A DNA stretch of 43,427 bases, from positions 1 through 43,427 of the forward strand of contig CAZXCD010000005.1 in NCBI GenBank assembly GCA_964638985.1. The letters are read 5' to 3'. The notes below the pieces were generated by a model that was not told the DNA's origin, searched no databases, and saw nothing but the letters and a program-made list of their open reading frames with translations. A program made the translations under genes and the position numbers. Shown here piece by piece: positions 2,143-30,075 of the stretch. The DNA comes from an uncultured Candidatus Saccharibacteria bacterium (GTDB taxonomy: Bacteria > Patescibacteriota > Minisyncoccia > Phycocordibacterales > UBA9973). Every line of letters begins with the position of its first letter. Positions within the stretch are counted from its first letter, which is position 1.

Positions 2143-2213
2143 GCGGGATTAGTTTAATGGTAAAACGTCAGTTTTCCAAACTGAGGTTGGGAGTTCGATT
2201 CTCCCATCCCGCA
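2143..2213 (+). tRNA. tRNA-Gly (anticodon TCC)
   Basis: Acceptor GCGGGAT/ATCCCGC, anticodon loop TTTCCAA, T-arm GGGAG-TTCGATT-CTCCC. Confidence 0.9.
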
Positions 2214-2227
2214 CAAAAAATCTATCC

Positions 2228-2255
2228 TTGACAAAAGGCGTTTTAGTTGTAGTAT
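2228..2255 (+). promoter_or_regulatory. sigma70-like promoter of the high-GC micro-island
   Basis: Consensus TTGACA (2228-2233), 16-nt spacer, TAGTAT (2250-2255). Confidence 0.5.
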
Positions 2256-2278
2256 AAAAAACGAAAGGAGACCCGTTC

Positions 2279-2374
2279 TTGAAGTCAAACAAGTGGTTCC
2301 CGCTGGTGGTGTCGATAGTAAGCCTTCTGAGCGTACTCGTCATCACCGGACTGATGATCAACTACTACGGATAG
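2279..2374 (+). CDS. 31-aa single-pass membrane peptide (TTG start): MKSNKWFPLVVSIVSLLSVLVITGLMINYYG
   Basis: SD AAAGGAG lies 8 nt upstream. It has one clear hydrophobic helix. 23 of 30 third codon positions are G/C, against the AT-rich host. It is below the ORF-track size cutoff. Confidence 0.45.
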   Translation: MKSNKWFPLVVSIVSLLSVLVITGLMINYYG

Positions 2375-2387
2375 AAAGGGAGAACGT

Positions 2388-2561
2388 ATGGGATATCTCG
2401 GACTAAACGACTCGCCCACCCCAGAGGAACGGTGGGCTCCGGTAACGATGTTCGTGATCGTCGTCTTCCTCGCCGCAGCCGCGTATGGCACGTACGTTTC
2501 CCGACACGGGAACGCACCGGCCACCAAGGCCCCCGCGACAACCAGCGCGCCGGCCAAGTAA
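2388..2561 (+). CDS. 57-aa single-pass membrane protein: MGYLGLNDSPTPEERWAPVTMFVIVVFLAAAAYGTYVSRHGNAPATKAPATTSAPAK
   Basis: SD GGGAG lies 5 nt upstream of the ATG. It has one TM helix and an Ala/Pro/Thr-rich tail, with GC-rich codon usage. A terminator follows directly. Confidence 0.45.
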   Translation: MGYLGLNDSPTPEERWAPVTMFVIVVFLAAAAYGTYVSRHGNAPATKAPATTSAPAK

Positions 2562-2585
2562 GGGCCCAACGCGCGAACCGCCATC

Positions 2586-2623
2586 GGGGCGGGGAGTCGG
2601 TCTATCGACTTCCCGCCCCTTTT
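2586..2623 (+). terminator. rho-independent terminator
   Basis: 14-bp GC-rich stem GGGGCGGGGAGTCG/CGACTTCCCGCCCC (one G-U), 6-nt loop, then TTTT. The T-tract is present only on the plus strand. Confidence 0.7.
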
Positions 2624-2679
2624 CAATTTCTATCTAATTTTTTTTGCAAAATATTTCCATTTAATATACGATAAGAAAC

Positions 2680-3423
2680 ATGATTACTACTTATATTTAT
2701 TCTTTCATCAGCGTAATAATAGTGAGTTTGATTTCTTTGATTGGGGCTTTCGCGCTTTCCATCAGAGAAGACCTTTTGCGCAAATATATTTTTGTTTTTA
2801 TTTCTCTGGCCGTCGGCGCGCTCTTGGGAGACGCTTTCATTCACCTCATTCCTGAAGCATTTGAACATGTCGGCAATGCTACTCACGTGAGTTTGCTCAT
2901 AATAGTAGGGGTTTTAATCTTTTTTATAATGGAAAAGTTCCTGCACTGGCACCACCACGGCGAAGACACGGAAGAAGTCCATCCGGTGGGGAAGTTGATT
3001 CTTTTTTCCGATGGGGTACACAATTTTATAGATGGCGTCATCATCGGAGTGAGCTTCCTCGTAAGCGTACCCGTGGGCATAGCCACCACGATAGCCGTCA
3101 TTCTACACGAGATTCCGCAAGAAATAGGGGATTTCGCCGTTTTACTTCATTCCGGCTACACCAAATCACACGCACTCTTCCTCAACTTTCTTTCAGCCCT
3201 TTGCGCCATCTTGGGAATGATTTTGGCTTTTGTCTTGGGAGAAGCGGGAGAAGCTTTTAGTTTATGGATTCTACCCATTGCCGCCGGAGGATTCATCTAT
3301 GTTGCCGTCGCTGATTTGATACCCGAACTGCATAAAACAAAAAAGGCAAAGCATTCCGCTTTGCAAATTGTGGCTGTCATTGCTGGAGTCCTCGCGATGG
3401 TCGCCCTGCTTTATTTAGAATAA
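2680..3423 (+). CDS. zupT: ZIP family divalent metal (zinc) transporter, ZupT-like
   Basis: HEIPQEIGDF motif, His-rich loop HWHHHGEDTEEVH, about 8 TM segments. Confidence 0.8.
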   Translation: MITTYIYSFISVIIVSLISLIGAFALSIREDLLRKYIFVFISLAVGALLGDAFIHLIPEAFEHVGNATHVSLLIIVGVLIFFIMEKFLHWHHHGEDTEEVHPVGKLILFSDGVHNFIDGVIIGVSFLVSVPVGIATTIAVILHEIPQEIGDFAVLLHSGYTKSHALFLNFLSALCAILGMILAFVLGEAGEAFSLWILPIAAGGFIYVAVADLIPELHKTKKAKHSALQIVAVIAGVLAMVALLYLE

Positions 3424-6783: not shown

Positions 6784-8820
6784 ATGCAACATCTGGCAGG
6801 GCTAAATAAAGAACAAAGAGAGGCGGCGCTTCATATGGAAGGTCCGCTTCTTATTGTCGCCGGAGCAGGAGCGGGGAAAACCAAGACTATTACGCACAGA
6901 ATAGTAAATTTGATAAAAAATGGAGTCGCTCCCGAAAAAATTCTGGCCGTTACTTTCACCAACAAGGCTGCGAAGGAAATGCGGGAAAGAATTATCGCGG
7001 AAATCCAAAAAAATGCCAAGGGGCAGGACAAAATCCCTTTTGTTTCCACTTTTCACTCGCTGGGAGTCTACATAATAAAGGAAAATGCTCGATTACTGGG
7101 ATTGACTAAATATTTCACTATTTTAGATGAGGGCGATGCGACAACTTTAATAAAAAATATATTGAAAGAGCTAGGCATAGACCCAAAACAATACGACCCC
7201 AAGAAAATAAAAAATATAATCTCGCGAGAGAAGGAAAAATTCGTGCATTTGTCCGACTATGCGGAAGGAGCCAGTGACACTTTGGGGAAAATAGTGGCGC
7301 AAGTGTGGAATCTATACGAAAAGCAAAAAATGAAAGAAAACTCCCTGGATTTTGATGATTTGCTCTTAAAAGCGACAAAATTGTTGAAAGAAAATGCGGA
7401 AATAAGGAAAATTTATCAGGAAAAATGGGACTACATACATATAGATGAGTATCAAGACACCAACGAAGTGCAATATTTGATGTCTAAACTGCTTTCGGAA
7501 AACAATAACAACATTTGTGTCGTGGGGGACCCAGATCAGTGTATATATTCATGGCGTCAAGCAGACATGAGAAATATCTTAAACTTCGAAAAAGACTACA
7601 GAGATGCAAAAATAATTTTATTGGAGCAGAATTACCGCTCCACGAAGAACATCCTGGAAGCAGCCAATGAAATAATAAAGAAAAATAAGTACCGTCCGGA
7701 CAAAAATTTATTTACCGACAACGTGGTGGGAGAAAAAATAGGACTCTATGAAGCGCTGGATGAAACCGACGAAGCGGAATTCGTAGCGACAAAAATTCTG
7801 GAAATTATGGATGGTCCACACCCTCCCCAAACCCCTCCCTCCGCGGGGGGGGAGGAATCCTCTCCCCCTGCGAAGGGGGAGTGCCACGACTTGAGTCGAG
7901 GCGAGGGGGTGAATCCCTCCGAAATTGCTCTGTTATACCGCGCGAACTTTCAATCCCGAGCACTGGAAGAAGCGATGCTTCGTTACAACATCCCATATCA
8001 AGTTCTGGGTGTGAAATTTTTTAAAAGAAAAGAAATCAAAGATACCCTTGCGTACCTCCGCGCCGCCTTGAACCCCGACAGCCTTTCGGATATAAAAAGA
8101 ATAATAAATTTCCCTGTACGAGGAATAGGTAAAGTCACCTTGGTGAAAATCTTTGCCAACGAGATTGAGAGTCTGCCGATAAAAGTCCGAATAAAAATTA
8201 ATAACTTTTATCAAATTCTAGAAGAAATAAAGGAAAAAATTAAAACTGCCAAGGCGAGTGAGGTAATAAAGTTCGTGGTAAAGAAGTCCGGGATTGAGCA
8301 AGAACTTCTAAACGGGGGAGAAGAGGATATAGAGAGATTGGAGAACATTAAAGAACTCGCCACTCTAGCGCTCAAATACGACAATCTGGAAAATGGTACA
8401 GGGATAGAAAAGCTTTTAGAAGATGGTGCCCTAGCTTCAGACCAAGATAGCTTAATGATAAATCAAGATAAGTCTGAGCGAGGACTACCCTCGCTCAAAA
8501 ACGGAGTGAAATTGATGACAGTCCACGCCTCAAAAGGTCTTGAATTCAAATACGTTTTTGTCACTGGACTGGAAGACGGACTCTTCCCACACGAAAGACA
8601 AAATGAGAGACAGGCAGGCGAAGACCGAGAAGAAGAGCGCCGACTTTTCTATGTAGCACTCACTCGCGCCAAAGAAAAATTATTTTTATCCTTTGCGAAT
8701 TTCCGCACTATTTTCGGCTCCCGCCAAATAAATGCTCCATCAGAATTCATCTCTGACATCCCAGCAGATTTATTAGAAAAGGAAGGCGAAACTAGCGGAA
8801 TAAAGACGATTTATCTATAA
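6784..8820 (+). CDS. pcrA: ATP-dependent DNA helicase PcrA/UvrD (SF1)
   Basis: Walker A AGAGAGKTKT, DEYQDTN, VVGDPDQCIYSWRQA, NYRST, VHASKGLEF, RRLFYVALTRAK. Confidence 0.9.
   Translation: MQHLAGLNKEQREAALHMEGPLLIVAGAGAGKTKTITHRIVNLIKNGVAPEKILAVTFTNKAAKEMRERIIAEIQKNAKGQDKIPFVSTFHSLGVYIIKENARLLGLTKYFTILDEGDATTLIKNILKELGIDPKQYDPKKIKNIISREKEKFVHLSDYAEGASDTLGKIVAQVWNLYEKQKMKENSLDFDDLLLKATKLLKENAEIRKIYQEKWDYIHIDEYQDTNEVQYLMSKLLSENNNNICVVGDPDQCIYSWRQADMRNILNFEKDYRDAKIILLEQNYRSTKNILEAANEIIKKNKYRPDKNLFTDNVVGEKIGLYEALDETDEAEFVATKILEIMDGPHPPQTPPSAGGEESSPPAKGECHDLSRGEGVNPSEIALLYRANFQSRALEEAMLRYNIPYQVLGVKFFKRKEIKDTLAYLRAALNPDSLSDIKRIINFPVRGIGKVTLVKIFANEIESLPIKVRIKINNFYQILEEIKEKIKTAKASEVIKFVVKKSGIEQELLNGGEEDIERLENIKELATLALKYDNLENGTGIEKLLEDGALASDQDSLMINQDKSERGLPSLKNGVKLMTVHASKGLEFKYVFVTGLEDGLFPHERQNERQAGEDREEERRLFYVALTRAKEKLFLSFANFRTIFGSRQINAPSEFISDIPADLLEKEGETSGIKTIYL
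7817..7911 (+). repeat. GC-rich multi-hairpin element, family A, in-frame in pcrA
   Basis: Ends CACACCCTCCCC...GAGGGGGTG. Internal hairpins include CTCCCCC-TGCGAA-GGGGGAG and CGAC-TTGA-GTCG. Encodes PHPPQTPPSAGGEESSPPAKGECHDLSRGEGV. Confidence 0.8.
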
Positions 8821-8835
8821 TGAAAGGAATATTAT

Positions 8836-10377
8836 ATGAAAATTTTTAACAAACAAGCACTCTATGTATTAAGCTCCTTTCTGGCCGGATTTTCTGTGCT
8901 GGTCGTTGAATTAATTTCAAGCAGAATTGTGGCCCCAATCATCGGTTCCTCAGTCTTCACTTGGACATCGGTCATAGGCATAACCCTGCTCGGACTGGCT
9001 GTAGGTAGCTATTTCGGCGGGCAAATAGCGGACAAAACAGATGCGGAAAAGTCTCTTCCTTTAGCATTTCTCATCTCGGCAATATTAGTTTCTTTAATTC
9101 CCACATTAGCCAGAAATACTGATTTTATTACAAATTCGTCTGATTCCATATTAAAATTAAATTTATATTTATCTTTATATCTCTTTTTACTTCCGACACT
9201 GGCAATAGGACTCATCCAACCGATAATCCTAAAAAGATTTGCTAATGATTTTTCAAAAATCGGTAGCGAGTATGGGACATTGTCCTTCGCCTGGTCGTTT
9301 GGCGGTATCCTTGGTGTATTTTTAACTGGATTTTTTTTCATCTCGTATATTGGAAGCAAAGAAACAATCTGGTTGATGTCTGCCGTGTTGTTCTTGGTGG
9401 GAATAATTTTCGCCTTTAAAAATAAACGGGTCCTTTTGCTTTTTGTTTTGACGATAATTTTCGTGCCAATGATTTTATATTTTACACAGCAAGAAACACC
9501 AAATCCTAAAATAATCTTTCAAAAAGAAACGGATTATTATAATGCAAAAGTTGTTGACACCCATCTTTCTTCATATGGGGATTCCAGAATTTTAGTTCTT
9601 GATTTTGATTTTCACAGCATTGAACCGGAGAAGAAAGTAGAGTATTACCCGGAAATATATCCTGTTTTTGCCAATTTAAAAGAGAATATAAAAGATATTC
9701 TTGTCATTGGCGCCGGAGCATATACAATGCCTAAACATTTTAAAAATTATTATAAAGACACGGATGTCTCAGTCGTTGAGTTGGACCCGGAAATGATCAG
9801 CGTTGGCAACGCTTTTTTTGATTTGGAAAAATATAACATAAAAACAATTGTAGGAGACGCGAAGGTCGTTATAAATAAAAATGAAGAAAAATATGACGTA
9901 ATTTTTGGTGACGCTTATAATTCTTTCATTTCAGTGCCTTGGTATTTATTAACCAAAGAATGGAACGATGAGGTAAAAAACAAATTAAAAGAAAACGGGA
10001 TTTATGCGGTAAATTTTATCGGCTCAATCTCAGAAGCAAAGTCTTTGTTTGCAAACAGTGTATTAAATACATTCAAGATCAGTTTTCCTAATTTTTATGT
10101 ATTCGCTTTTGGCGTTAAACCCGAATACACACAAAATATCGTATTGGTAGGAATCAATGGGGAACTTCCTCTCAGTGATACAGAGCTCCGCCAAAAATTA
10201 TTATTGGGAGAAAATAGTTTTTTGGCAGAAAAAATAATTTCAGCTGAATTTTTTAAGGGACCAGCTCCTGTAATCCTCACAGATAACTTTTCCCCTGTGG
10301 AAAAGTTAATGGAGCCGACAATAAAAAGTTTTTTCCCAAAAAACTTATCGGAGATAAAAGATATTCTGTCTTTATGA
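8836..10377 (+). CDS. fused polytopic membrane domain / spermidine synthase-like methyltransferase-fold protein
   Basis: About 7 N-terminal TM helices, then a SpeE-like fold (VIGAGAYT, VVELDPEM, GDAKVV, IFGDAYNS). Confidence 0.65.
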   Translation: MKIFNKQALYVLSSFLAGFSVLVVELISSRIVAPIIGSSVFTWTSVIGITLLGLAVGSYFGGQIADKTDAEKSLPLAFLISAILVSLIPTLARNTDFITNSSDSILKLNLYLSLYLFLLPTLAIGLIQPIILKRFANDFSKIGSEYGTLSFAWSFGGILGVFLTGFFFISYIGSKETIWLMSAVLFLVGIIFAFKNKRVLLLFVLTIIFVPMILYFTQQETPNPKIIFQKETDYYNAKVVDTHLSSYGDSRILVLDFDFHSIEPEKKVEYYPEIYPVFANLKENIKDILVIGAGAYTMPKHFKNYYKDTDVSVVELDPEMISVGNAFFDLEKYNIKTIVGDAKVVINKNEEKYDVIFGDAYNSFISVPWYLLTKEWNDEVKNKLKENGIYAVNFIGSISEAKSLFANSVLNTFKISFPNFYVFAFGVKPEYTQNIVLVGINGELPLSDTELRQKLLLGENSFLAEKIISAEFFKGPAPVILTDNFSPVEKLMEPTIKSFFPKNLSEIKDILSL

Positions 10378-11222
10378 AAGCAAAAAAATCATTGGGGCAA
10401 AATTTTTTAAAGTCGGAGATTGCGCTCAAGAAGATTGTTGAAGCGGGAGAAATAAAAAAGAGCGACGTGATTTTGGAAATCGGCCCAGGGAAAGGAGCGC
10501 TCACAGAAAAACTGTTAGCTTCTGGCTGTCAGCTTGTAGCTGTGGAGAAAGATCGAGATTTATATGAATTATTGAAAGATAAATTTCAGAAAGAAATTGC
10601 GGAAGGAAAATTAGTTTTGTTAAACGAAGACATACTTAAATTTCAAATTTCCAATTTCAAATTTCCAAAATATAAAATCATCGCCAACATTCCTTACAAC
10701 ATCACCGGCGCGATTTTAAAAAAATTTTTAACAGAAAAAAATCAGCCGGAAAGAATGATTTTGATGGTCCAGCGCGAAGTGGCGGGGAGAATAATCGCCC
10801 GCGATGGGAAGGAAAGCATTCTTTCAATGTCAGTCAAGGCTTACGGGGAACCAAAAATGATAATGAAGGTAAATAAAAGATATTTCTCTCCAGCGCCCAA
10901 AGTTGATTCCGCGATAATTGAAATAAAAAATATTTCGAGAAAAAATTTTCCTCCCCTCCTTGTGGAGGAGGGGGCAGGGGGTGGTGATTCAAAGAGATTA
11001 CCACCTCGCCCTTCGGGCACTCCTCCTCAAAAAAGAGGAGAGGGGACATTCGAGGAAAAATTTTGGGAAATAGTAAAAACCGGCTTTGCGCACAAACGTA
11101 AAAAACTTTCTTCAAACCTAAAAGGATTAATTTCTCCCCAAAAACTGTCTTCGGTAAACCTAGGTGACAAAAGGGCGGAAGATTTGGCTCTTTCAGACTG
11201 GATAAACCTAGCTAAAAACTAG
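10374..11222 (+). CDS. rsmA: 16S rRNA (adenine1518/1519-N6)-dimethyltransferase RsmA/KsgA
   Basis: LGQNFL, EIGPGKGALT, ANIPYNIT, and C-terminal FAHKRKKL. The ATGA start overlaps the upstream stop. Confidence 0.9.
   Translation: MKAKKSLGQNFLKSEIALKKIVEAGEIKKSDVILEIGPGKGALTEKLLASGCQLVAVEKDRDLYELLKDKFQKEIAEGKLVLLNEDILKFQISNFKFPKYKIIANIPYNITGAILKKFLTEKNQPERMILMVQREVAGRIIARDGKESILSMSVKAYGEPKMIMKVNKRYFSPAPKVDSAIIEIKNISRKNFPPLLVEEGAGGGDSKRLPPRPSGTPPQKRGEGTFEEKFWEIVKTGFAHKRKKLSSNLKGLISPQKLSSVNLGDKRAEDLALSDWINLAKN
10950..11046 (+). repeat. GC-rich multi-hairpin element, family B, in-frame in rsmA
   Basis: CCTCC-TTGT-GGAGG, GGTGG..CCACC and CCTCCTC-A6-GAGGAG hairpins. Encodes PLLVEEGAGGGDSKRLPPRPSGTPPQKRGEG. 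About 80% identical by eye to the copy at 24122-24216. Confidence 0.8.
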
Positions 11223-14756: not shown

Positions 14757-17201
14757 ATGAAAAATTTAGCCAAAAAACTAGTCCCATATTTATTTATACT
14801 CATCGCGCTAGTTGGGTTGTTTGGGTGGGCAGAGAAAGCGGAAGCCGAAAGCCCAGATGACCGGGGAGATTGTAAAATCACTACAGAATCTGCTTCGGGT
14901 AATACACCTCCCAGAATTGAAACTAAGGAAAATATAACAAGAGCGCAATGCACCGCGCTGAAGACTCCAACGGCAAGTACAGTATTTACTTTGAAAGTAG
15001 CAGTAGATGATATTAAAGGGATGTGTACGACTAATACCACAGTAACCGAGGATACAAAAAAACATTGTGAAGACGGCGGGGGGCAGTGGAGGCTAAAAGG
15101 AACTGATAATAATCCAGATGCAGCACCAGAAGCAGAGGATTCGGAAAAATCTGCGTTTGAAAACAAACTAAATTTAACTTGCAAAAACCCAATTAGTAAT
15201 TTTTCAGGATGTTTTCTACAAGTTTTCTATTGGCTTCTTCACGACATCCCAGCGCTTCTACTGGGAATTTCTGGTTATTTTTTTAATATCTTAATATCTG
15301 TGTCACTAGATGGTACTTTATTAAAAAGTGCTTTTGTAGGAGAAGCTTGGGGGGTGGTAAGAGACCTTTCAAACATTTTCTTTATACTTATTCTCCTCTA
15401 TATTGCTGTCAAAATTATTGTGGATTTAGAAGGACACGAGGCAAAACAAATGATAGTAAAAGTTGTAATTATGGCTTTGCTTATAAACTTTTCTATGTTT
15501 TTTACTCAAGTCATCATTGACACATCAAACGTTTTAGCTCTAGTTTTCTACAACAAAATGAAGGTAAGTACCGTAAACCCTGACGGTAACGAAAGACAGT
15601 ATTCTTCAATAAAGAACGAAAAAGATATTTCGGGTGGCTTGGTGGCCTCGTTTGATCCCACGACAAAGATACTGAGCTCGGGCTTTTTTGAACAAATAGA
15701 AAAAAAATATGACGCTAATGGAAAGATTATAGTCATAAATGGACAAGAACAAAGACAGCCCATAGGATTTGGAACAAAACTGGCAATCATTGTTCTTTCT
15801 GGCGCCATTATGATTGTCGCGACTTATGTTCTATTTGTCTCGGGGTTCTTCTTCCTTGGAAGATTGATTGAACTATGGACTTTAATTATTTTCTCTCCAT
15901 TCGCCTTTATGTCTTATACTGTACCTAAACTATCAGAGATGGAAGAATTGGGTTGGAAATCATGGTTTAAACGCTTAATCAGCTCGGCCTTTATGGCGCC
16001 GATTTTTATGTTCTTTTTGTATTTTATATTTATGTTAATAGCCTCTCCATTATTTAAAAATCTTATGCCGGAAAGCACTGAAACAACTGGCGTGGCTGGG
16101 TGGATAAAAATTATATTAAACGTGCTGTTGCCTTTTATATTTATTTGCGTACTTCTTCTGAAAGCAAAAGACTATGCGAAGAAAGGTTCCGGACAATTTG
16201 GGGAGGCGGTGATGAGTGTAGCCAAGGTCGCGGGTGGACTCGCCTTGGGTGCCGCAACGGGCGGGGTTTCAATAATGGGAACTGGAGCGGTTGGAAGTTT
16301 GTCTTCTGGAGTGGCAAGTAGTAAATTCCTAAATGAAAACCAAAATAAAAAAGGGTTGGGGGGTATGGCTGCTAGGGTGGCCCTAAAAACCGCAGACTAT
16401 GGTTCTAAGGCTTCATTTGATGTTAGAAAAATAGCTGGTGTCGGGGCTTTAGCTAAGATGGGCGGAATAAATCTAGAATCAGTAAAAGCAATCGGACTAG
16501 GATCTAAAGATGGTGGATATATACAAAGAAGAAAGGAACAAGTAGCAAGTAGGCAGAAGAGGGCAAAAGAGCTTGAGATAAGAGAAGATGAGCCATTAAA
16601 ACAAGCTTTAAATAAAGCAGAAGCAGACCTGCAAAGTCTTTTGAGTGACAACCATAACGTAATCGAGTCGCTAGATAAAGACATAGAAAAGAAAAGACAA
16701 GAGGTAAGCGATGCAGAGAAAAAATTCAACTCGGCTAAGGGTACTGCTAATGAAGGGGCTGCGAGAACAGCGTTAGATTTAGCAAACACTAAATTAGACT
16801 TCGCAAAAAACAACAAGCAGGATTTCCGAACAGGACAACAGTATAGAACTTATGATAGGGCAGGAAATTTTGTGCTCCAAACTGGAACTGGTCAAAATAT
16901 TAACGACCTAGAGGAAAACAAAAAACATGCGGCTCATGACATACAAAAAGAAAACAGGGCAAGAAAATGGGCTTATGCTGAAAGAATAGTAAAATGGAGT
17001 CCGGGATTTTATAAAGCCGACAGAGAAGCTGCTCATAAAATACGAATGGAAGCAAAAATAGAAGATACAGGAAAAGATCATGGAGGTGGTGGTGGAGGGC
17101 ATGCCCCAGCGGCAGCTCACCCTGCACCCCCGGCTCATGGCCCAGCTCCAGCAGTTGCACCTGCCGCCCCAGCTCATGGTCCCGCCCCCCACCAACCATA
17201 A
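14757..17201 (+). CDS. VirB6/TrbL-like polytopic membrane protein with coiled-coil and His/Pro/Ala-rich tail
   Basis: Signal peptide, Cys-pair N-terminal module, multi-TM block (about aa 150-500), K/E-rich coiled coil, and tail GGGGGGHAPAAAHPAPPAHGPAPAVAPAAPAHGPAPHQP. It lies next to the VirB3/VirB4-like genes. Confidence 0.55.
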   Translation: MKNLAKKLVPYLFILIALVGLFGWAEKAEAESPDDRGDCKITTESASGNTPPRIETKENITRAQCTALKTPTASTVFTLKVAVDDIKGMCTTNTTVTEDTKKHCEDGGGQWRLKGTDNNPDAAPEAEDSEKSAFENKLNLTCKNPISNFSGCFLQVFYWLLHDIPALLLGISGYFFNILISVSLDGTLLKSAFVGEAWGVVRDLSNIFFILILLYIAVKIIVDLEGHEAKQMIVKVVIMALLINFSMFFTQVIIDTSNVLALVFYNKMKVSTVNPDGNERQYSSIKNEKDISGGLVASFDPTTKILSSGFFEQIEKKYDANGKIIVINGQEQRQPIGFGTKLAIIVLSGAIMIVATYVLFVSGFFFLGRLIELWTLIIFSPFAFMSYTVPKLSEMEELGWKSWFKRLISSAFMAPIFMFFLYFIFMLIASPLFKNLMPESTETTGVAGWIKIILNVLLPFIFICVLLLKAKDYAKKGSGQFGEAVMSVAKVAGGLALGAATGGVSIMGTGAVGSLSSGVASSKFLNENQNKKGLGGMAARVALKTADYGSKASFDVRKIAGVGALAKMGGINLESVKAIGLGSKDGGYIQRRKEQVASRQKRAKELEIREDEPLKQALNKAEADLQSLLSDNHNVIESLDKDIEKKRQEVSDAEKKFNSAKGTANEGAARTALDLANTKLDFAKNNKQDFRTGQQYRTYDRAGNFVLQTGTGQNINDLEENKKHAAHDIQKENRARKWAYAERIVKWSPGFYKADREAAHKIRMEAKIEDTGKDHGGGGGGHAPAAAHPAPPAHGPAPAVAPAAPAHGPAPHQP

Positions 17202-17214
17202 TAGTTAAAAACTT

Positions 17215-19566: not shown

Positions 19567-21417
19567 ATGGACTTTTTTAAAAAATTATTAGGTGGGAAAA
19601 AAGCGACGGAAGAAAAGGAAGTGAGAGCTTCTGTCTTGGCGGTGATGCCAGAAGAAATTTATCAGTCCGCCACCCTGGAACTCCAAGATGTCATCGCACC
19701 ATCAGCTTTAAAAATCGCCTCCAAATCCATAAGTCTGGGAGATAAAATTGCTCGCACTTTTTTTATTATTTCTTACCCTAGATTCCTGACGGACAATTGG
19801 TTTTCTCCCATAATCAACTTAGATAAGGTTTTTGATATTTCCATTTTCATCCATCCGATAGACACCTCCCTAGTACTCCGACAATTCCAGAAAAAAGTCG
19901 CCGAAGTACAGAGCCAGATAAGTGTGCGCGAAGCGAAGGGAATGGTGCGCGACCCGATGCTTGATACCGCTTATCAAGATTTGGAAGGGCTCCGCAACAA
20001 TTTGATTCAAGCGCAAGAAAAAATGTTTGACGTGGGCATTTACATTACAATTTATGCCGACAACGAACTGGAACTTTTCAAAATAGAAAATGAGATAAAA
20101 TCAATCCTGGAATCAAAGCTCATCTACATCAAACCGGCGCTCTTCCAACAGGAAGATGGTTTCAAGAGCGTTATCCCCATAAACACAGACCTGCTCGGCA
20201 TTCATCAGAAGTTGAATTCTGAACCGCTTAGTAGCGTCTTCCCATTTATCTCCTTTGACCTGACCTCCGACAAAGGTATACTCTACGGCATCAACAGACA
20301 CAACTCCAGTCTGGTCATCTTTGACAGATTTTCTTTGGAAAATTACAACTCAGTAACCTTCGCCAAGTCCGGCTCCGGAAAATCTTACGCAACAAAATTG
20401 GAAATCTTAAGATCGCTAATGTTTGACGTGGATGTCATTGTGATAGACCCGGAGAGGGAATATGAATTCTTGTCGGAGGCCGTGGGGGGAAGATATTTTA
20501 ATATTTCTCTTTCTTCAGACCACCACATCAATCCTTTTGACCTGCCCATCCCGCACGAAGATGAAACAGCCGAGGATGTTTTGCGTTCAAACATAATAAA
20601 CTTGGTAGGACTTTTCAGATTGATGTTGGGCGGACTGACTCCCGAAGAAGATTCAATGGTGGACCGAGCTATTTCCGAAACTTACGCCATGAAAGATATC
20701 ACTCCCGAGTCTGATTTCTCAAACATTGAGCCTCCGCTTCTCTCAGACTTTGAGTTGGTGCTCGGAGGAATGGACGGAAGCGATTCAATAGTCACCAGGT
20801 TGGCGAAATATACGCGCGGTTCTTGGGCGACATTCTTAAACAGACCATCCAATGTGGATATCAACAAAAAATTCGTGGTATTTTCCGTCCGTGACATGGA
20901 GGACGAACTGAAACCAGTAGCCATGTACATCATTATGCATTACATCTGGAATACGATAAGAAAAAATCTAAAAAAACGCTTACTGGTCGTAGACGAGGCC
21001 TGGTGGATGATGAAATCCGAAGACACCGCGTCATTCTTGTACTCTATCGCCAAGAGAGGCAGAAAATATTACCTGGGTCTTTCCACCATCACCCAAGACG
21101 CGGCAGACTTTATGAAGTCTCCATATGGTGTGCCTATCATTACCAACTCTTCCATTCAGCTTCTCCTCAAACAATCGCCCACTACTATAGATATTTTGCA
21201 AAAAACCTTCAACCTTACAGATGAAGAAAAATATTTGCTCTTGGAATCCGGACTCGGGGAGGGCATCTTCTTCGCGGGGTTAAAACACGTCGCCATAAAG
21301 GTTATTTCTTCTTACACAGAAGACCAGATAATCACCTCAGACCCTTCACAGATACTTTCAAATAGAAAAGCCAAGGAAGAGCAGGAACGGGCGGAGACTG
21401 AAAGAACCTCACCCTAG
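19567..21417 (+). CDS. virB4: VirB4-like T4SS ATPase (central and C-terminal ATPase part)
   Basis: Walker A FAKSGSGKSYATK, Walker B LLVVDEAWWMM, and the IAPSALK....FFIISYPRFL pattern typical of VirB4/TraC-like proteins. Confidence 0.85.
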   Translation: MDFFKKLLGGKKATEEKEVRASVLAVMPEEIYQSATLELQDVIAPSALKIASKSISLGDKIARTFFIISYPRFLTDNWFSPIINLDKVFDISIFIHPIDTSLVLRQFQKKVAEVQSQISVREAKGMVRDPMLDTAYQDLEGLRNNLIQAQEKMFDVGIYITIYADNELELFKIENEIKSILESKLIYIKPALFQQEDGFKSVIPINTDLLGIHQKLNSEPLSSVFPFISFDLTSDKGILYGINRHNSSLVIFDRFSLENYNSVTFAKSGSGKSYATKLEILRSLMFDVDVIVIDPEREYEFLSEAVGGRYFNISLSSDHHINPFDLPIPHEDETAEDVLRSNIINLVGLFRLMLGGLTPEEDSMVDRAISETYAMKDITPESDFSNIEPPLLSDFELVLGGMDGSDSIVTRLAKYTRGSWATFLNRPSNVDINKKFVVFSVRDMEDELKPVAMYIIMHYIWNTIRKNLKKRLLVVDEAWWMMKSEDTASFLYSIAKRGRKYYLGLSTITQDAADFMKSPYGVPIITNSSIQLLLKQSPTTIDILQKTFNLTDEEKYLLLESGLGEGIFFAGLKHVAIKVISSYTEDQIITSDPSQILSNRKAKEEQERAETERTSP

Positions 21418-21484
21418 CCCTCTCCTGGAAGGAGAGGGGGAAATTAGTCCCTTCCCATTCCAGGGGAAGGCGGGGGATGAGGTT
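21405..21484 (+). repeat. GC-rich hairpin element, family C (full copy), overlapping the virB4 stop codon
   Basis: Perfect terminal inverted repeat AACCTCA...TGAGGTT. Inner hairpins CCCTCTCC-TGGAA-GGAGAGGG and CCTTCCC-N7-GGGAAGG. The virB4 TAG lies inside the element. Confidence 0.8.
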
Positions 21485-22511: not shown

Positions 22512-23804
22512 ATGATTTTATTAAATCAAATGAAAAAACTTTTTATTTACATTTCAATACTAATAGTAATAACCGGAATATTTAGTCCAATATTTAAAAC
22601 AGAAGCGGCAGATCCTCAGATGGGGACTTGTACCTACACGTATGAATCCTATGGTAAACCTGTTATTGAAAAAACTCGTACCATAAAAGATAATTGTAAA
22701 GGACCAGATAGGGTGTGGGAACCGGATACTGCTCCATCAGCAGACACAGCACTAGGAACTTGTACCTACACGTATGAATCCTATGGTACTCAAAAATTTG
22801 AACTTACTCGCACCTTTAAAACTAATTGCACTGGAGCAGACAGAACCTGGAAGGAATCAACGCTGGCAGAATTTCAAGCAGAAAAAGCTGCCAAGGAAGG
22901 CACTGGCGGTGAAAAAGATGATGGTTTTGTGGGACCTCCAGATCCATATTATCATTTTTTAGCCCCATTACCTTGCGAACCAGGAACTCCCGATTGTGAC
23001 AGCAGTGGAAAACTTATAACCTTTGATCCTAGTGGAGAAAACAAAATAGGTGGGTATTTGAATGTAATGATACGAATATTCATTGGTATGTGCGCCGTGT
23101 TGGCGGTGATAATGATTGTCGTGGGGGGCATAGAATATATGACGAGTGAGTTGATATCAAATAAAGAAAATGGCAAACACCGGATTACCGGCGCAATCTT
23201 CGGACTTGTACTGGCCTTAGGAGCCTGGACGCTTCTAAATACAATCAATCCTGATTTATTGAAGACAGATTTAACAAGTTTGCAAAATGTAGAGGTGGTA
23301 GTAGATCTAGGTGGTGAAGGAAATACTCCACTCAATGAAACAACGATCCAAAATGATTTAAAAGGTGTCGGCATTGTTTGCCCTAAAGATGGTGGGGCTG
23401 GAGCACTTTCTGGAATTGCCCAATCTTATGTTGGACACTCAACTTATAGTATGGAAAAAAGAAATACCACAAGTGGAGGGATAGCTTATGTTGATTGTTC
23501 TTCTTATTTGAGTCAGGTCTATGTATGTGCGGGGCTTAGAAACCCTGGAGGTACCTCTCTTGGAATATTTGGCTCAGGAAGTACCCCTGTCACAAGCATT
23601 AGTACAGACGGAACAACAATAAATGGTGTGGCTCTAAAAATTGGTGACTTAATCGGATGGACCGCGGGTGGAAAAGAAAAATATGGCCATGTTATGATGT
23701 ATGTGGGTGGCGGAAAAATGATTGACGCACAAGGACAAGGTGGTGTAGCAATAAGGGCGGTAAGTTCCTACGCAGCAAGAATAAAATTTGTTAAAAAACT
23801 TTAA
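22512..23804 (+). CDS. fusion protein: tandem Cys modules + TrbC/VirB2-like pilin hairpin + NlpC/P60 cell-wall hydrolase
   Basis: Signal peptide. Two 44-aa repeats (GTCTYTYESYG...NC.G.DR.W). Two TM helices (IGGYLNVMIRIFIGMCAVLAVIMIVVGG / ITGAIFGLVLALGAWTLL). NlpC/P60 Cys (VDCSSYLSQVY) and His (GHVMMYVGGGKMIDA). Confidence 0.7.
   Translation: MILLNQMKKLFIYISILIVITGIFSPIFKTEAADPQMGTCTYTYESYGKPVIEKTRTIKDNCKGPDRVWEPDTAPSADTALGTCTYTYESYGTQKFELTRTFKTNCTGADRTWKESTLAEFQAEKAAKEGTGGEKDDGFVGPPDPYYHFLAPLPCEPGTPDCDSSGKLITFDPSGENKIGGYLNVMIRIFIGMCAVLAVIMIVVGGIEYMTSELISNKENGKHRITGAIFGLVLALGAWTLLNTINPDLLKTDLTSLQNVEVVVDLGGEGNTPLNETTIQNDLKGVGIVCPKDGGAGALSGIAQSYVGHSTYSMEKRNTTSGGIAYVDCSSYLSQVYVCAGLRNPGGTSLGIFGSGSTPVTSISTDGTTINGVALKIGDLIGWTAGGKEKYGHVMMYVGGGKMIDAQGQGGVAIRAVSSYAARIKFVKKL
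22626..22788 (+). repeat. intragenic tandem duplication (exact 31-mer ACTTGTACCTACACGTATGAATCCTATGGTA at 22626 and 22758, period 132 nt)
   Basis: Read directly. Corresponds to the duplicated 44-aa Cys module. Confidence 0.85.
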
Positions 23805-23808
23805 TTTT

Positions 23809-25191
23809 ATGTCAAAAAGAAACTTTATACTTTTAACAATAATCTTAACCATCATCGTGCTAGCAGTATTGGGATTTTTGTATTCACAGCGCAACGTGAC
23901 GACCCCCGGGGAAGACAGCTCCGGCACAAATTTCATTTCGCAATTTAACCCATTCGGGAGCGATAAGCCCACCCCCACTCCACCTGGAACAACCCCCACC
24001 GATGTTTCTGGTTACGAGCCTGGACCAGAACAAGAAGAAGTGAAGTTAAAAAAAGTTTCCAGTATGCCTGTAGCCGGTTTCACTGTCTATCCTAAAGAAA
24101 GATTGAAAGAGGTAGCAGTAGCTCCCCTCCTTGTGGAGGAGGGGGTTGGGGGTGGTGCTAGCTCTACAACACCACCTCCCCCTTCGGGTACTCCTCCTCA
24201 GAAAGGAGGAGAGGGATCCAAACCCACCCCACCAGCAACAGAGTTTGCATCTGCTCTCCGATATGTAGATAGGGTCACAGGAAATATTTACCAAACTTTC
24301 GCGGATAAAATAGAAGAGAGGAGGTTTTCAACCACAACGATACCTAAAGTATATGAAGCATTCTTTGGCAACAAAGGGACTTCTGTGGTGATGCGATATT
24401 TGAAAGAAGATAGTACAACCATTACGACTTTTGTCGGCAATCTCCCGAAAGAGCTACTCGGAGGGGACTCTACCGAGGACAATGAAATAAAGGGGGTGTT
24501 CTTACCGGAAGATGTGCGGGATGTAAGTCTATCCCAAGATGCCGGAAGCATTTTTTATCTGTTTAATGTTGGAGAAAACATCGTGGGTACGACTTTAGGC
24601 TTAACCACCAATAAAAAATCCCAAATTTTTGATTCACCTTTTACCGAATGGCTGTCCCGGTGGCCGAATAACAAACTAATCACTCTCACCACCAAACCCG
24701 CCTCCGGAGTTCCCGGATACGTGTATGGGATAGACCTGCTAAACAACAAAAATTTACGCCAAATCTTCGGTAATATAAACGGGTTGACTACACTCACGAG
24801 CCCTAATGGCAAATTGATTCTTTATGGAAATGATGGTTTATCTCTAGGTATTTATCACACGGACACAAAAGTATCGGAATCGCTTGGAATAAAAACTCTG
24901 CCGGAAAAATGTGTTTGGGGAATGGCTAGTGATGTAGTTTATTGTGGAGTACCTGGATCCATAGCTGGGGCGGGTTATCCTGATGCCTGGTATCGCGGAG
25001 AAGTATCTTTCGTAGATCAAATTTGGAAAATAGATATAACTTCCGGAAATGCCACCCTCCTTGTAGACCCGATGACAACAGAAGGAGGGGAGGAAGTGGA
25101 TAGTATAAAACTTGCGCTAGATGCAGACGAAAATTATTTATTTTTTGTAAACAAAAAAGATTCCTTTCTTTGGGAACTTAAATTAAAATAA
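23809..25191 (+). CDS. membrane-anchored hypothetical protein, possibly beta-propeller-like
   Basis: ATG 23809 gives a signal-anchor (MSKRNFILLTIILTIIVLAVLGF). The ORF-track TTG start at 23788 overlaps the upstream gene. Carries a family B insert. Confidence 0.55.
   Translation: MSKRNFILLTIILTIIVLAVLGFLYSQRNVTTPGEDSSGTNFISQFNPFGSDKPTPTPPGTTPTDVSGYEPGPEQEEVKLKKVSSMPVAGFTVYPKERLKEVAVAPLLVEEGVGGGASSTTPPPPSGTPPQKGGEGSKPTPPATEFASALRYVDRVTGNIYQTFADKIEERRFSTTTIPKVYEAFFGNKGTSVVMRYLKEDSTTITTFVGNLPKELLGGDSTEDNEIKGVFLPEDVRDVSLSQDAGSIFYLFNVGENIVGTTLGLTTNKKSQIFDSPFTEWLSRWPNNKLITLTTKPASGVPGYVYGIDLLNNKNLRQIFGNINGLTTLTSPNGKLILYGNDGLSLGIYHTDTKVSESLGIKTLPEKCVWGMASDVVYCGVPGSIAGAGYPDAWYRGEVSFVDQIWKIDITSGNATLLVDPMTTEGGEEVDSIKLALDADENYLFFVNKKDSFLWELKLK
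24122..24216 (+). repeat. GC-rich multi-hairpin element, family B, in-frame in ORF 23809
   Basis: Collinear with the rsmA copy. Encodes PLLVEEGVGGGASSTTPPPPSGTPPQKGGEG. Confidence 0.8.
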
Positions 25192-25192
25192 A

Positions 25193-25282
25193 TTCACCCT
25201 CCCCACTCCCTCCCTTCGCAGGGAGGGGACCTTCTCCCCCTGCGAAGGGAGGGAGTGCCTGAAAGGCAAGGGGGTGTTTGAA
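25193..25282 (+). repeat. GC-rich multi-hairpin element, family A, intergenic copy
   Basis: TTCACCCTCCCC...GGGGGTG ends, with CCCTCCC-TTCGCA-GGGAGGG and CTCCCCC-TGCGAA-GGGAGGGAG hairpins. Fills the whole 92-nt gap between the convergent ORF 23809 and jag. Confidence 0.8.
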
Positions 25283-30035: not shown

Positions 30036-30070
30036 ACCTCACCCCAACCCTCTCCTGAAAGGAGAGGGGA
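30036..30070 (+). repeat. GC-rich hairpin element, family C (half copy)
   Basis: AACCTCACCCCAA + CCCTCTCC-TGAAA-GGAGAGGG. Collinear with the left half of 21405-21484. Ends 5 nt before the next start codon. Confidence 0.7.
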
Positions 30071-30075
30071 AAGTT

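Follow-up and report, generated by a model that had tools for sequence, protein, structure and literature searches.

A GC-rich unit with strong Shine-Dalgarno sites, predicted to encode two small membrane peptides, precedes a ZIP transporter gene in a subgroup of Nomurabacteria

Introduction

Several small single-pass membrane proteins of model bacteria, among them KdpF, MgtS, MgtR, AcrZ and MntS, accompany or regulate transporters. The unit described here resembles them in that its predicted peptides of ~30–60 aa have one helix each and strong translation signals of their own, and in that it lies next to a metal-transporter gene. It differs from them in sharing no sequence similarity, in not being co-transcribed with the transporter gene, as the unit has a terminator and the ZIP gene appears to have its own promoter, and in that hypervariable peptides stand beside a transporter that is 87-98% conserved, in a unit whose composition and Shine-Dalgarno (SD) use are atypical for the genome.

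For the translation signals, the closest described case is rpsU, encoding bS21, in the Bacteroidia, an SD-poor lineage in which a strong SD on this one gene has a regulatory role. The two cases are alike in that an SD-poor genome keeps a conserved strong SD on very few genes. They concern different phyla and different genes, and nothing seen here suggests autoregulation.

The reading preferred here, at a probability of about 0.75, is that the unit is a bicistronic operon, native to the genome and transcribed on its own, for two tiny single-pass membrane peptides, belonging to a clade-restricted family and vertically inherited. The family is confined to a subgroup of Nomurabacteria (Parcubacteria/CPR), and since gene callers miss the sense ORFs or, in the window species, take an antisense ORF of 99 or 113 aa in their place, this clade-specific CPR small-protein family had gone unannotated.

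Organization of the unit

The window, that is, the whole stretch of DNA analysed (43,427 nt), carries the unit near its start, and the features of the region are as follows.

2143..2214, + strand: tRNA-Gly(TCC), upstream neighbour outside the unit (ARAGORN; Rfam tRNA, 73.7 bits)
2228..2255, + strand: predicted sigma-70-type promoter, TTGACA-16-TAGTAT, 10 of 12 consensus matches
2265..2270, + strand: Shine-Dalgarno site 1, AAGGAG, 8 nt ahead of the ORF1 TTG, in a short A-rich 5'UTR
2279..2374, + strand: ORF1, 31 aa, TTG start, MKSNKWFPLVVSIVSLLSVLVITGLMINYYG, predicted single-helix membrane peptide
2377..2382, + strand: Shine-Dalgarno site 2, AGGGAG, 5 nt ahead of the ORF2 ATG
2388..2561, + strand: ORF2, 57 aa, ATG start, MGYLGLNDSPTPEERWAPVTMFVIVVFLAAAAYGTYVSRHGNAPATKAPATTSAPAK, predicted membrane peptide with one helix
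2562..2585, + strand: GC-rich 3'UTR, GC 0.75
2586..2629, + strand: intrinsic terminator, made up of a hairpin (2586-2619) and the TTTTCAATTT after it
2644..2672, + strand: putative ZIP promoter, TTGCAA-17-TACGAT, ending 7 nt ahead of the ZIP ATG
2680..3423, + strand: ZIP-family metal transporter gene, downstream neighbour (Pfam Zip, E 4.9e-51)
2285..2626, - strand: antisense 113-aa ORF, spurious, a shadow ORF arising from high GC

The island of 400 nt carries just two small ORFs, and its neighbours are a gene of the Na/Ca exchanger family, the tRNA gene and the ZIP gene. The promoter, the start of transcription, the translation of the ORFs and the insertion of the peptides in the membrane are predictions from the sequence. 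Transcription probably starts at ~2262, which implies an A-rich 5'UTR of ~16 nt. The Kyte-Doolittle maximum (15-aa window) is 2.81 for ORF1 and 2.52 for ORF2, with one hydrophobic stretch in each. ORF2 consists of an acidic N-terminus, one predicted membrane helix and a basic tail rich in Pro, Thr and Ala, and this distribution of charge suggests an N-out/C-in topology. The terminator scan called a hairpin of 15 pairs (11 G-C) with a 4-nt loop. The putative ZIP promoter has 8 of 12 consensus matches by reading and scores below the scan threshold, so that what supports its assignment is its conservation, together with the leaderless pattern of the genome as a whole described below.

Much of this layout had been proposed in a sequence-only reading of the same DNA. 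Both neighbours between which it placed the unit, tRNA-Gly(TCC) (2143-2214) and the ZIP gene (2680-3423), were confirmed, and its promoter TTGACA-16-TAGTAT was recovered by the scan with 10 of 12 consensus matches. The ORFs of 31 and 57 aa, to each of which it had given one TM helix, were found with one hydrophobic stretch each, and its GC-rich terminator with a T-tract corresponds to the hairpin at 2586-2619, with 11 G-C pairs, and the TTTTCAATTT that follows. The strong SD sites it had claimed for both ORFs are AAGGAG and AGGGAG, 8 and 5 nt before the respective starts.

In the proposed model, transcription would proceed from the near-consensus -35/-10 promoter, with a start at ~2262, and the strong SD in the short A-rich leader would recruit the ribosome to the TTG of ORF1, while the second SD, placed right after the ORF1 stop, would drive ORF2. 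The long G+C-rich hairpin with its T-tract would end the transcript ~60 nt ahead of the ZIP gene, which would be expressed from its own promoter, placed for a leaderless or near-leaderless mRNA. Lying upstream of the ZIP promoter, so strong a terminator would also shield it from read-through. A plausible reason for the upkeep of high GC and SD dependence is that a GC-rich, structure-prone mRNA needs SD pairing for internal and leadered initiation, the default of the organism being leaderless or A-rich.

Base composition and translation signals

The 100-nt GC peak of the entire 43-kb window, 0.75, falls at 2500-2599, ~4.4 sd above the window mean of 0.398 (sd 0.079). GC by codon position in ORF1 is 0.42/0.29/0.77 (GC3 24/31 with the start codon included) and GC3 in ORF2 is 43/57 (0.75), against 0.39 +/- 0.07 in the native genes, with a maximum of 0.51. 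As the 3'UTR also has a GC of 0.75, the excess is not restricted to codons. The G+C counts made by hand in the sequence-only reading for single 60-nt lines (40/60, 44/60 and 11/60) were reproduced exactly, and its 23 of 30 G/C third positions in ORF1 agree with the 24 of 31 obtained when the start codon is counted.

Further GC-rich patches of the window, at 7786-7947, 17059-17214 and 25509-25637 (GC 0.69-0.74), differ in kind, being in-frame GC-rich repeat elements and a protein tail rich in Gly, Ala and Pro.

Among the 36 native ORFs of the window, a weak SD-like tetramer at most was present in 3, which bears out the earlier claim that nearly all other genes lack an SD, and a TAnnnT box ending 6-7 nt ahead of the start codon was present in 15. 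When the window was scanned for a strong SD hexamer followed by a start codon, true gene starts were obtained at ORF1 and ORF2 only; all other matches sit within a long ORF or a repeat. The remaining genes of the window look leaderless. According to a published survey (PMC9297842), just 48% of the 16S genes of Parcubacteria carry the anti-SD motif; if the present lineage lacks it, conserved SD-like motifs could not act canonically. The 0.8 Mb of sequence searched for a 16S 3' end contained none.

A natural contrast within one genome is thereby offered, with nearly all genes seemingly leaderless, AT-rich and SD-free, and one tiny GC-rich operon with SD sites, and these sites, together with a GC3 of 0.62-0.81, persist across lineages at synonymous saturation. 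From this contrast it becomes testable whether Parcubacteria ribosomes still use SD pairing, and what maintains local GC. The locus raises the question of what holds local GC against the genome-wide AT bias, for which RNA-level selection, biased gene conversion and recurrent replacement are candidate forces.

Homologous units in related genomes

The unit segment was identical in 8 independently assembled contigs from several samples, the sole SNP among these same-species contigs falling in the terminator loop. An assembly chimera, a concern of the sequence-only reading, is excluded by this identity.

Homologous units were found in at least 9 other related lineages (loci L009/L101, L010, L013, L100, L103, L104, L105, L106/L107 and L108-110), whose ZIP proteins are 70-98% identical to that of the window. 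Common to these units are the promoter motif, the 5'UTR with its SD, the terminator stem and the downstream ZIP promoter. The promoter stretch 2224-2255 is identical in L009 at 32 of 32 nt, against 67% identity at ZIP third codon positions in the same comparison, and the family promoter motif TTGACWAAA-N10/11-RTTGTAGTAT is present in L103, L104, L105, L106, L108 and L010. The 5'UTR motif AAAAAAYGRAAAGGAG is kept in L103, L104, L105 and L010, and counterparts of the internal SD are AAAGGAG in L106 and GGGAGG in L105. The terminator stem GGGGCGGG...CCCGCCCC is shared by L100 and L103-L108, whose inner stems and loops differ, and the ZIP promoter is conserved in L009, L100, L103-L108 and L011. 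As homologous units with shared signals occur upstream of ZIP in relatives, the unit is old and inherited within the clade.

The downstream neighbour was ZIP for 10 of the 11 distinct units found, though the upstream neighbour changes: tRNA-Gly(TCC) is also found there in L013, L103, L104 and L105, and not in L009, L010 and L106. The exception is L111, one low-coverage contig, in which the unit precedes an aminotransferase gene instead of ZIP. Several close relatives (L102, L012, L016, L018 and L021) have ZIP and lack the unit.

In the nine units measured, ORF GC3 was 0.62-0.81 and body GC 0.50-0.58; outside the unit, the same nine loci had a GC of 0.35-0.50 and a ZIP GC3 of 0.31-0.59. Where alignable, the units have diverged to a dS of ~1 or more, yet all are GC-rich, which is the opposite of a recent import undergoing amelioration. 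The description of composition and translation signals as foreign therefore stands insofar as they are atypical for this genome; a recent import is contradicted by the GC-rich units of the relatives. On the preferred reading, the high GC and the dependence on SD would be kept up over time and not be left over from an import, and their persistence suggests selection for GC.

Coding capacity and evolution of the peptides

The + strand of 8 of the 9 species carries an ORF of 25 aa or more that is preceded by an SD and includes a membrane-like hydrophobic stretch; the window, L105 and L106 have two such ORFs each. In each of the 8 positive species such an ORF arose in 0 of 1000 dinucleotide shuffles, and none was found on the - strand in any of the 9 species. 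Family hydrophobicity maxima (15 aa) were 2.4-3.4 in 8 of the 9 species; the ORF of L013 failed the scan.

The peptides of L009 and L104 are 69% identical, and their genes differ at synonymous sites, by conservative replacements and by a single 3-nt indel; for ORF2 of this pair dN is 0.26 and dS 0.49, with 7/1/7 differences by codon position in the ungapped block. Homologues of ORF1 are MLKKNRFGHGVWVIPTLVATLLVAVALWRS in L106 and MKNKWFHLVV... in L105, the latter differing from the ORF1 of the window, as read by eye, mostly by synonymous changes and one codon indel. ORF2 homologues were found in L106, L103, L105, L104, L009 and L100. Sense small ORFs were called independently by gene callers in L101, L104, L105 and L108-110. 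ORF1 and ORF2 are accordingly read as coding from these comparisons.

The 113-aa antisense ORF was rejected as a real gene, since it would start within the terminator and has no Pfam match. Antisense stretches without a stop are present in every species, but relative to the sense ORF they fall in three different frames. In the window species it is the antisense ORF (113 or 99 aa) that gene callers annotate instead of the sense ORFs, and an exact-product database look-up returned a record of neither ORF1 nor ORF2.

The peptides change far faster than the flanks and are less well conserved than the expression signals. Cistrons number 1 to 3 per species, peptide similarity does not follow the ZIP phylogeny, and peptide dN/dS is ~0.4-1, the alignments being unreliable beyond the closest pair.

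Database searches

When 5.8 billion proteins were searched by word index with ORF2, no candidate emerged, and a profile search with 7 family peptides, run against these same proteins, retrieved only three loci that were already known. The sole phmmer match among 1.84 billion representatives was a 1325-aa repeat protein, reached through weak per-repeat matches summing up, and was judged a chance match, as this protein lacks a membrane helix where it aligns. Searches of phage and plasmid DNA, and tblastn against phages, yielded nothing or short chance matches of 26-76 nt. Peptide homologues beyond the clade, and with them the high-GC source envisaged in the sequence-only reading, were thus not found by protein, phage and plasmid searches; small ORFs being sparse in protein databases, this is only moderately informative. 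A metagenome scan with the promoter motif, over a collection that does not include the window organism, found only a multi-copy small-RNA-like locus of an unrelated organism (L089-L099).

With Pfam, NCBIfam, PHROGs and PADLOC, the best matches of 10 family peptides had E 0.007-0.4 and 11-18 bits, below the cut-off. In the window and 8 related loci only tRNAs reached an Rfam gathering score; with the limit relaxed to E 10 over 2100-2750, the top matches other than tRNAs that overlap the unit had 10-21 bits, far under their gathering scores. RNase P, SRP, tmRNA, 6S and riboswitches were rejected for want of an Rfam match, and ARAGORN called no tmRNA. Targeted mutagenesis of the DGR type was likewise discarded, the window holding no template-repeat copy of the island.

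Descent and possible function

The conserved signals and position are consistent with a unit that was already in the common ancestor of the sampled lineages and descended vertically; cistrons are gained, lost or fused, while the signals are conserved and the peptides turn over very fast.

As to function, our best guess, held tentatively, is that the peptides are small membrane proteins, present in abundance, which would modulate either the membrane itself or some transporter. Given the persistent adjacency, ZIP is the obvious partner candidate. Against such a linkage, the unit and ZIP appear to be separate transcription units, L111 breaks the adjacency and many relatives have ZIP but not the unit; moreover, the peptides are so poorly conserved that it is doubtful whether they would partner specifically with ZIP, itself a highly conserved protein.

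A different and rather unlikely proposal is that the locus is a hypervariable expression slot, in which conserved signals (a strong promoter, SD sites and a terminator) frame a GC-rich body that is rapidly diversified, or swapped among lineages, and encodes ever-changing membrane peptides for the symbiont-host or phage interface of an episymbiotic CPR cell. ORF1 and ORF2 would be the sole SD-dependent genes of a lineage whose translation otherwise starts on leaderless mRNAs, with a selected, separate translation channel. Were this so, high GC and SD dependence would themselves be that selected channel, not a historical accident. Conserved signals around hypervariable peptides make the locus a candidate for a role in symbiont-host or phage interaction, and such leads are few in CPR.

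Alternative explanations

The coding body could have been imported long ago, or replaced again and again under conserved resident expression signals, from an unseen GC-rich pool, be it a mobile element, phage or host; the locus would then be a hot spot of recombination at which lineages swap alleles. Several observations fit: the flanks of the window and L100 are 92-93% identical (third positions 79%) while the 3' part of ORF2 is ~57% identical at the DNA level; the ORF2 of the window is closest to that of L106 (ZIP 87%), not L100 (98%) or L009 (95%); between L009 and L104 the ORF2 dS of 0.49 is below the ZIP dS of 0.85; and the GC excess survives divergence. No member of such a pool was met in protein, phage or plasmid searches, however, and a weak family resemblance is kept in the N-terminal motif M-LGL-N/E-D..P and the ...PK C-terminus, which fits fast divergence of one family. 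We regard ancient import or replacement as unlikely.

Some features of the unit may be likened to type I toxin-antitoxin systems (Hok, Fst, Ldr, TisB, AapA1), in which a hydrophobic peptide damages the membrane, the mRNA is stable and structured, and an antisense RNA restrains it. The peptides are small, hydrophobic and single-helix, with polar or charged tails, they are clade-restricted and fast evolving with variable copy number, and they would be made from a GC-rich mRNA at an intergenic site that is tRNA- or IS-adjacent; in the window, the ribosome-binding region of ORF2 and the 3' end of the transcript are also 71% complementary over 24 nt. Known type I toxin mRNAs keep their SD sequestered, whereas here the predicted A-rich 5'UTR of ~16 nt is not a long structured one, its strong SD appears exposed, and the surroundings of SD site 1 are unpaired in the MFE fold. 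A consensus scan found no promoter-like site for an antisense RNA on the minus strand in 2000-2800, though a weak or atypical promoter could escape it, no toxin family of NCBIfam, Pfam or PADLOC was matched, and the syntenic position beside a housekeeping transporter gene has been inherited stably across many lineages of reduced genome. A toxin of this type is accordingly considered improbable.

The GC of tRNA and rRNA genes in AT-rich genomes is high through RNA structure, and the unit could by the same token be a structured non-coding or dual-function small RNA with incidental ORFs. The GC excess that reaches into the 3'UTR, a promoter and terminator better conserved than the ORF sequences, and folding z-scores of -2.7 (+ strand) and -2.4 (- strand) all agree with this, but a z of -2.7 corresponds to ~16 kcal/mol, which the terminator hairpin alone could plausibly supply, and no Rfam family was matched even at E up to 10. 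This alternative, which the sequence-only reading had itself named, was checked in the relatives: the sequence is unconserved between species, whereas 8 of the 9 keep the SD, the start codon, an open frame and a hydrophobic helix, a combination met in 0 of 1000 shuffles for each, and close pairs show synonymous or conservative substitutions and codon-sized indels. Coding is favoured, and an RNA with incidental ORFs is very improbable.

No more probable is a cis-regulatory leader or arrest peptide that would control ZIP, either by attenuation or by letting transcription pass the terminator when a ribosome stalls. The unit and ZIP keep together in the same orientation, the terminator sits between the ORFs and ZIP, and the small membrane-helix peptides have Pro-rich C-termini, several ending in ...PK-stop. 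Yet ZIP lacks an SD, and its own putative promoter, conserved and 7 nt from the ATG, is placed for a leaderless mRNA, so a read-through transcript would offer only an internal, SD-less AUG; in contrast to SecM, MifM and TnaC, there is no occluded expression signal of ZIP for a stalled ribosome to open. The distance from the ORF2 stop to the terminator stem, 24 nt in the window and ~33 nt in L009 (read by eye), is too great for a terminating ribosome to melt the stem, and on this geometry an arrest peptide or attenuator was rejected. No alternative antiterminator pairing was seen, and relatives without the unit have ZIP directly after tRNA-Gly or a Fur-family gene.

The least probable account is the one put forward in the sequence-only reading, a recent acquisition from a high-GC organism, for instance a host, integrated beside tRNA-Gly: the deviant base composition (GC3 0.75-0.77 against 0.39 +/- 0.07), the SD sites absent from native genes and the position directly 3' of a tRNA recall tRNA-adjacent islets and remnants of integrated elements, but GC-rich homologous units in at least 9 related lineages, at the same position down to 70% ZIP identity, contradict it, homologues outside the clade were not found in protein, phage and plasmid searches, and the unit promoter is of the same -35/-10 type as a promoter-like site before the neighbouring tRNA. 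The hallmarks of integration were looked for as well: there is no integrase or recombinase in or beside the island and no flanking direct repeat that could serve as att in 2100-2720, and the last 17 nt of the tRNA do not recur elsewhere in the window, even with up to 3 mismatches. Deviant composition beside a tRNA alone does not, then, show recent transfer. Unlike tRNA-adjacent islets, the unit of the preferred reading, a vertically inherited operon, is present clade-wide and linked to ZIP rather than to the tRNA, and it stays with ZIP in L009, L010 and L106, where the tRNA is not its neighbour.

Anatomy and composition of the unit

The segment between tRNA-Gly(TCC) and the gene for a ZIP-family transporter was found to contain the promoter, the two ORFs led by Shine-Dalgarno (SD) sites and the terminator, all as described in the sequence-only reading.

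Features of the unit and its neighbours (window coordinates)
2143-2214: tRNA-Gly(TCC), upstream neighbour
2228-2255: promoter, TTGACA-16-TAGTAT
2279-2374, + strand: ORF1, 31 aa, TTG start, AAGGAG 8 nt before the start
2388-2561, + strand: ORF2, 57 aa, ATG start, AGGGAG 5 nt before the start
2586-2619: terminator hairpin, 15 pairs called (11 G-C), then a T-tract
2680-3423: ZIP-family transporter gene, downstream neighbour (Pfam Zip, E 4.9e-51)

The earlier hand counts of G+C (40/60, 44/60 and 11/60) were reproduced exactly, and the high G+C at third codon positions (GC3) was confirmed, being 24/31 in ORF1 and 43/57 in ORF2; the 36 long native ORFs of the window average 0.39 ± 0.07, with a maximum of 0.51. 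The island holds the 100-nt GC maximum of the entire 43-kb window (0.75; window mean 0.398, sd 0.079), and the untranslated 24 nt from the ORF2 stop to the terminator share the excess (GC 0.75). The ZIP protein is encoded on eight independently assembled contigs from at least six groundwater samples and differing pipelines. All eight have the same island junctions, which rules out an assembly chimera, and across the island they differ by one SNP only, located in the terminator loop.

Homologous units in relatives

Relatives were found with the ZIP protein as anchor (one genome per species), followed by graded ZIP homologues and their contigs. Homologous units lie immediately 5' of the ZIP gene in the following lineages.

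Units in related loci (ZIP identity to the window; small ORFs; upstream context)
L100: 98%; partial; contig begins within the unit
L009/L101: 95%/94%; one 55-aa ORF; transposase
L104: 92%; one 55-aa ORF; tRNA-Gly(TCC)
L103: 91%; one fused 68-aa ORF; tRNA-Gly(TCC)
L105: 87%; three ORFs; tRNA-Gly(TCC)
L106/L107: 87%; two ORFs, window-like; tRNA-Gly not the direct neighbour
L108-110: 81%; one 38-aa ORF; not tRNA-Gly
L010: 78%; one 32-aa ORF; tRNA-Pro on the opposite strand
L013: 70%; one 49-aa ORF; tRNA-Gly(TCC)

Common to most units are the promoter TTGACWAAA-N10/11-RTTGTAGTAT, an A-rich leader bearing AAAGGAG(G), a recognisable terminator outer stem (GGGGCGGG...CCCGCCCC) and a ZIP promoter TTGCAAA...TACGAT that stops about 7 nt 5' of the ZIP ATG. 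L013 shows no more than a diverged promoter, and L009 is without the A-rich leader. The window and L009 match at all 32 nt of the stretch that spans the promoter, a pair in which the third codon positions of ZIP are just 67% identical.

The unit is missing in the more distant L012, L016 and L018, in which 1-3 nt separate the end of tRNA-Gly(TCC) from the ZIP ATG, and in L021, with a gap of 6 nt. This near abutment (L016 3928-4003, and likewise in the other three) suggests that ZIP is co-transcribed there with the tRNA and made leaderless by tRNA 3' processing. The unit is also absent from L102 (ZIP 92% identical), where a Fur-family gene, likely Zur, abuts ZIP (L102 1-470); it is preceded by a promoter like that of ZIP, with the inverted repeat TGCAA-N5-TTGCA. 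Since units stand upstream of ZIP across these lineages and are missing in more distant ones, the unit is an old inherited feature of the subclade and no strain-specific insertion.

A transposase with a DDE/integrase-core-like C-terminus lies directly 5' of the small-ORF promoter (L009 900-1160, L101 1-50), replacing tRNA-Gly. In L111 (1-420) the unit is that of L106, but the sequence departs from it immediately 3' of TTTTTTGCA, and the gene that follows is one for an aminotransferase and not ZIP; as the contig has 1.26x coverage, either a rearrangement or an assembly error may be the cause.

Coding evidence

The unit codes on the + strand. The transcript body of each of nine species was compared with 1000 dinucleotide-preserving shuffles, counting ORFs of at least 25 aa with GGAG or GAGG 4-11 nt ahead and a 15-aa Kyte-Doolittle mean of at least 2.4. 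Eight of the nine species had qualifying ORFs, one or two each, which were confined to the + strand, with no case on the opposite one, and the observed count was reached by 0/1000 shuffles in each of the eight. The peptides of the closest pair, L009 and L104, are 69% identical; among the DNA differences are numerous synonymous substitutions, exchanges between Val, Leu and Ile, and a single 3-nt indel (dN 0.26, dS 0.49; codon-position differences 7/1/7). Read by eye, ORF1 and its L105 counterpart (MKSNKWFPLVV and MK-NKWFHLVV) are likewise set apart by synonymous substitutions and an indel of one codon.

A 113-aa antisense ORF that gene callers annotate in this species was rejected as a gene and put down to the high GC content. 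All species have a long antisense stretch free of stops, yet in three different frames relative to the sense ORF, and the start of the window's antisense ORF would fall within the terminator.

That the unit is instead a non-coding RNA is very improbable. It folds about 16 kcal/mol better than its shuffles, an amount that the terminator hairpin alone could plausibly supply, and folding against shuffles did not demonstrate any structure excess beyond the terminator. In the window and eight related loci Rfam returned tRNAs only, at gathering score and at E up to 10, and ARAGORN found no tmRNA.

Translation signals

SD sites are otherwise rare in the window, as had been noticed: even a weak SD-like tetramer precedes only 3/36 long ORFs, and a scan of the window for a strong SD hexamer plus start codon yielded genuine gene starts at ORF1 and ORF2 only. 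Of the 36 native ORFs, 15 have a TAnnnT box, often TGnTAnnnT, with its end 6-7 nt 5' of the start codon, a signature of leaderless mRNAs that the ZIP gene matches, and the regions upstream of operon-internal genes are A-rich and SD-free. The organism seems to depend mostly on initiation that is leaderless or A-rich. In a published survey, the share of Parcubacteria 16S genes with an anti-SD motif is reported to be only 48% (PMC9297842). Every cistron found in the unit-bearing lineages has an SD motif ahead, which argues, from sequence conservation, that these motifs are functional, and the lineage is therefore predicted to retain the anti-SD.

The 3'UTR of L103, L104, L105 and L106/L107, from the last stop to the terminator, also contains a conserved, perfect SD-like AGGAGGTGA (AGGAGGTGG in L106/L107) with no ORF behind it; this is absent from the window 3'UTR.

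Evolution of the peptides and maintained GC

Peptide evolution far outpaces that of the flanking sequence: between L009 and L104, dN is 0.26 for the small ORF and 0.04 for ZIP; other pairs gave dN/dS of about 0.4-1, values that are indicative only, alignments being unreliable beyond the closest pairs. Between the window and L100, ZIP and the next gene are 92-93% identical (third positions 79%) and the segment of 3'UTR, terminator and ZIP promoter 83%, with just ~57%, gapped, for the 3' part of ORF2. Units comprise 1 to 3 cistrons, and L103 looks like a deletion joining the N-terminus of the first cistron to an ORF2-type cistron at its SD. A weak family signature is left: M(x)LGL-N/E-D/E..P.P at the N-terminus, a single helix rich in Val/Leu/Ala/Gly in the middle and a basic tail, often with PK at the end. 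In the terminator (window 2586-2619, L100 133-165) the stem is kept and the 6-nt loop is reverse-complemented (GTCTAT vs ATAGAC), as would result if the two arms had recombined and so inverted the hairpin.

All measured units are GC-rich (body GC 0.50-0.58, ORF GC3 0.62-0.81) compared with the remainder of each locus (GC 0.35-0.50) and with ZIP (GC3 0.31-0.59). As sequences diverged to saturation are all still GC-rich, the excess is maintained and no fading trace of import. The route to such maintenance would be selection acting on the RNA or the DNA, GC-biased conversion if the locus recombines, or repeated replacement from a GC-rich pool.

An import long ago, or an exchange of alleles with some unseen pool, draws support from the incongruence between peptide similarity and ZIP identity (the window ORF2 is most similar to that of L106, with ZIP at 87%), but no donor was found and such an origin is unlikely. 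The recent transfer from a high-GC organism, with the host as a possible source, that headed the sequence-only reading fails and is hardly credible, given an old inherited unit, a GC excess maintained despite saturation and no homologues found outside the clade; the puzzles that are left are genuine and can be tested.

Ten peptides from the family gave no significant match in Pfam, NCBIfam, PHROGs or PADLOC, and phage and plasmid collections gave short chance matches only. Neither a recombinase nor a copy of the tRNA 3' end flanking the island was found. Profile and exhaustive searches with the family peptides returned members from the loci already found only, in protein databases where small ORFs are under-represented. 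The unit would work in the manner of a small-membrane-protein operon. It fits no family described so far, and its own, new and clade-restricted, is distinguished by conserved signals round hypervariable peptides and by GC and SD use kept in a leaderless, AT-rich CPR genome.

Proposed mechanism and function

The strong -35/-10 promoter, whose type recurs in the promoter-like site before the neighbouring tRNA, would give a transcript of about 365 nt, on which ribosomes would load at the SD sites of ORF1 and ORF2 to make two peptides. Each is predicted to enter the membrane as a single helix, ORF2 probably N-out/C-in by its charge distribution, and the strong terminator would close the transcript and keep read-through off the leaderless ZIP promoter.

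The peptides are tentatively read as small modulators in the membrane, perhaps acting on ZIP or on metal homeostasis (probability roughly 0.3). The adjacency to ZIP survives three kinds of upstream rearrangement; against the link, unit and ZIP are separate transcription units, the low-coverage L111 has the aminotransferase gene downstream, and the extreme peptide turnover speaks against peptides tailored to one conserved partner. A rapidly diversifying interface peptide is a more doubtful proposal. A type I toxin is improbable, as no antisense promoter was found and the SD appears exposed, and a leader or arrest peptide for ZIP, for which the geometry is wrong, can be largely discounted.

Other repeats and elements

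The window has further GC-rich patches (7786-7947, 17059-17214, 25509-25637), a different phenomenon from the unit. A dispersed GC-rich palindromic family (core ...CTCCCCCTGCGAAGGGGGAG...) has copies at 7786-7947, in ORF 6784-8820 (UvrD-type helicase), and at 25509-25637, in ORF 25284-25817, with related copies near 25184-25257 and 36933-36966/37369-37395. Two copies of ~90 nt (79% identical) are in frame within long ORFs, adding Pro/Gly/Glu/Ser-rich loops, and resemble the in-frame palindromic elements of Rickettsia.

Two more GC-rich hairpin families (CTCCCCTCCTTGTGGAGGAGGGG... and AACCTCACCC..CCCTCTCCTGGAAGGAGAGGG) have copies at 10951-11044 (in ORF 10374-11222), 24122-24215 (in ORF 23788-25191), 21405-21482 and 30035-30076, some within reading frames, some at the ends of genes with a possible role as terminators.

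The promoter pattern was also matched in metagenome contigs of an unrelated organism (L089-L099), in which TTGACTAAATTC(C/T)TTTTTGTTGTAGAATA drives a conserved ~170-nt unit ending in a terminator; found in several genomic contexts and without an Rfam match, it looks like a multi-copy small RNA. Finally, a GC-rich repeat (...AGACCCCTTTCTGCGGGCGG...TTTTGCAAAATCCTTT(T)CCCCAGAAAATAGTTT...) common to L015 3130-3480 and L108/L109, two species, lies upstream of the ZIP region and looks like a MITE-type element.
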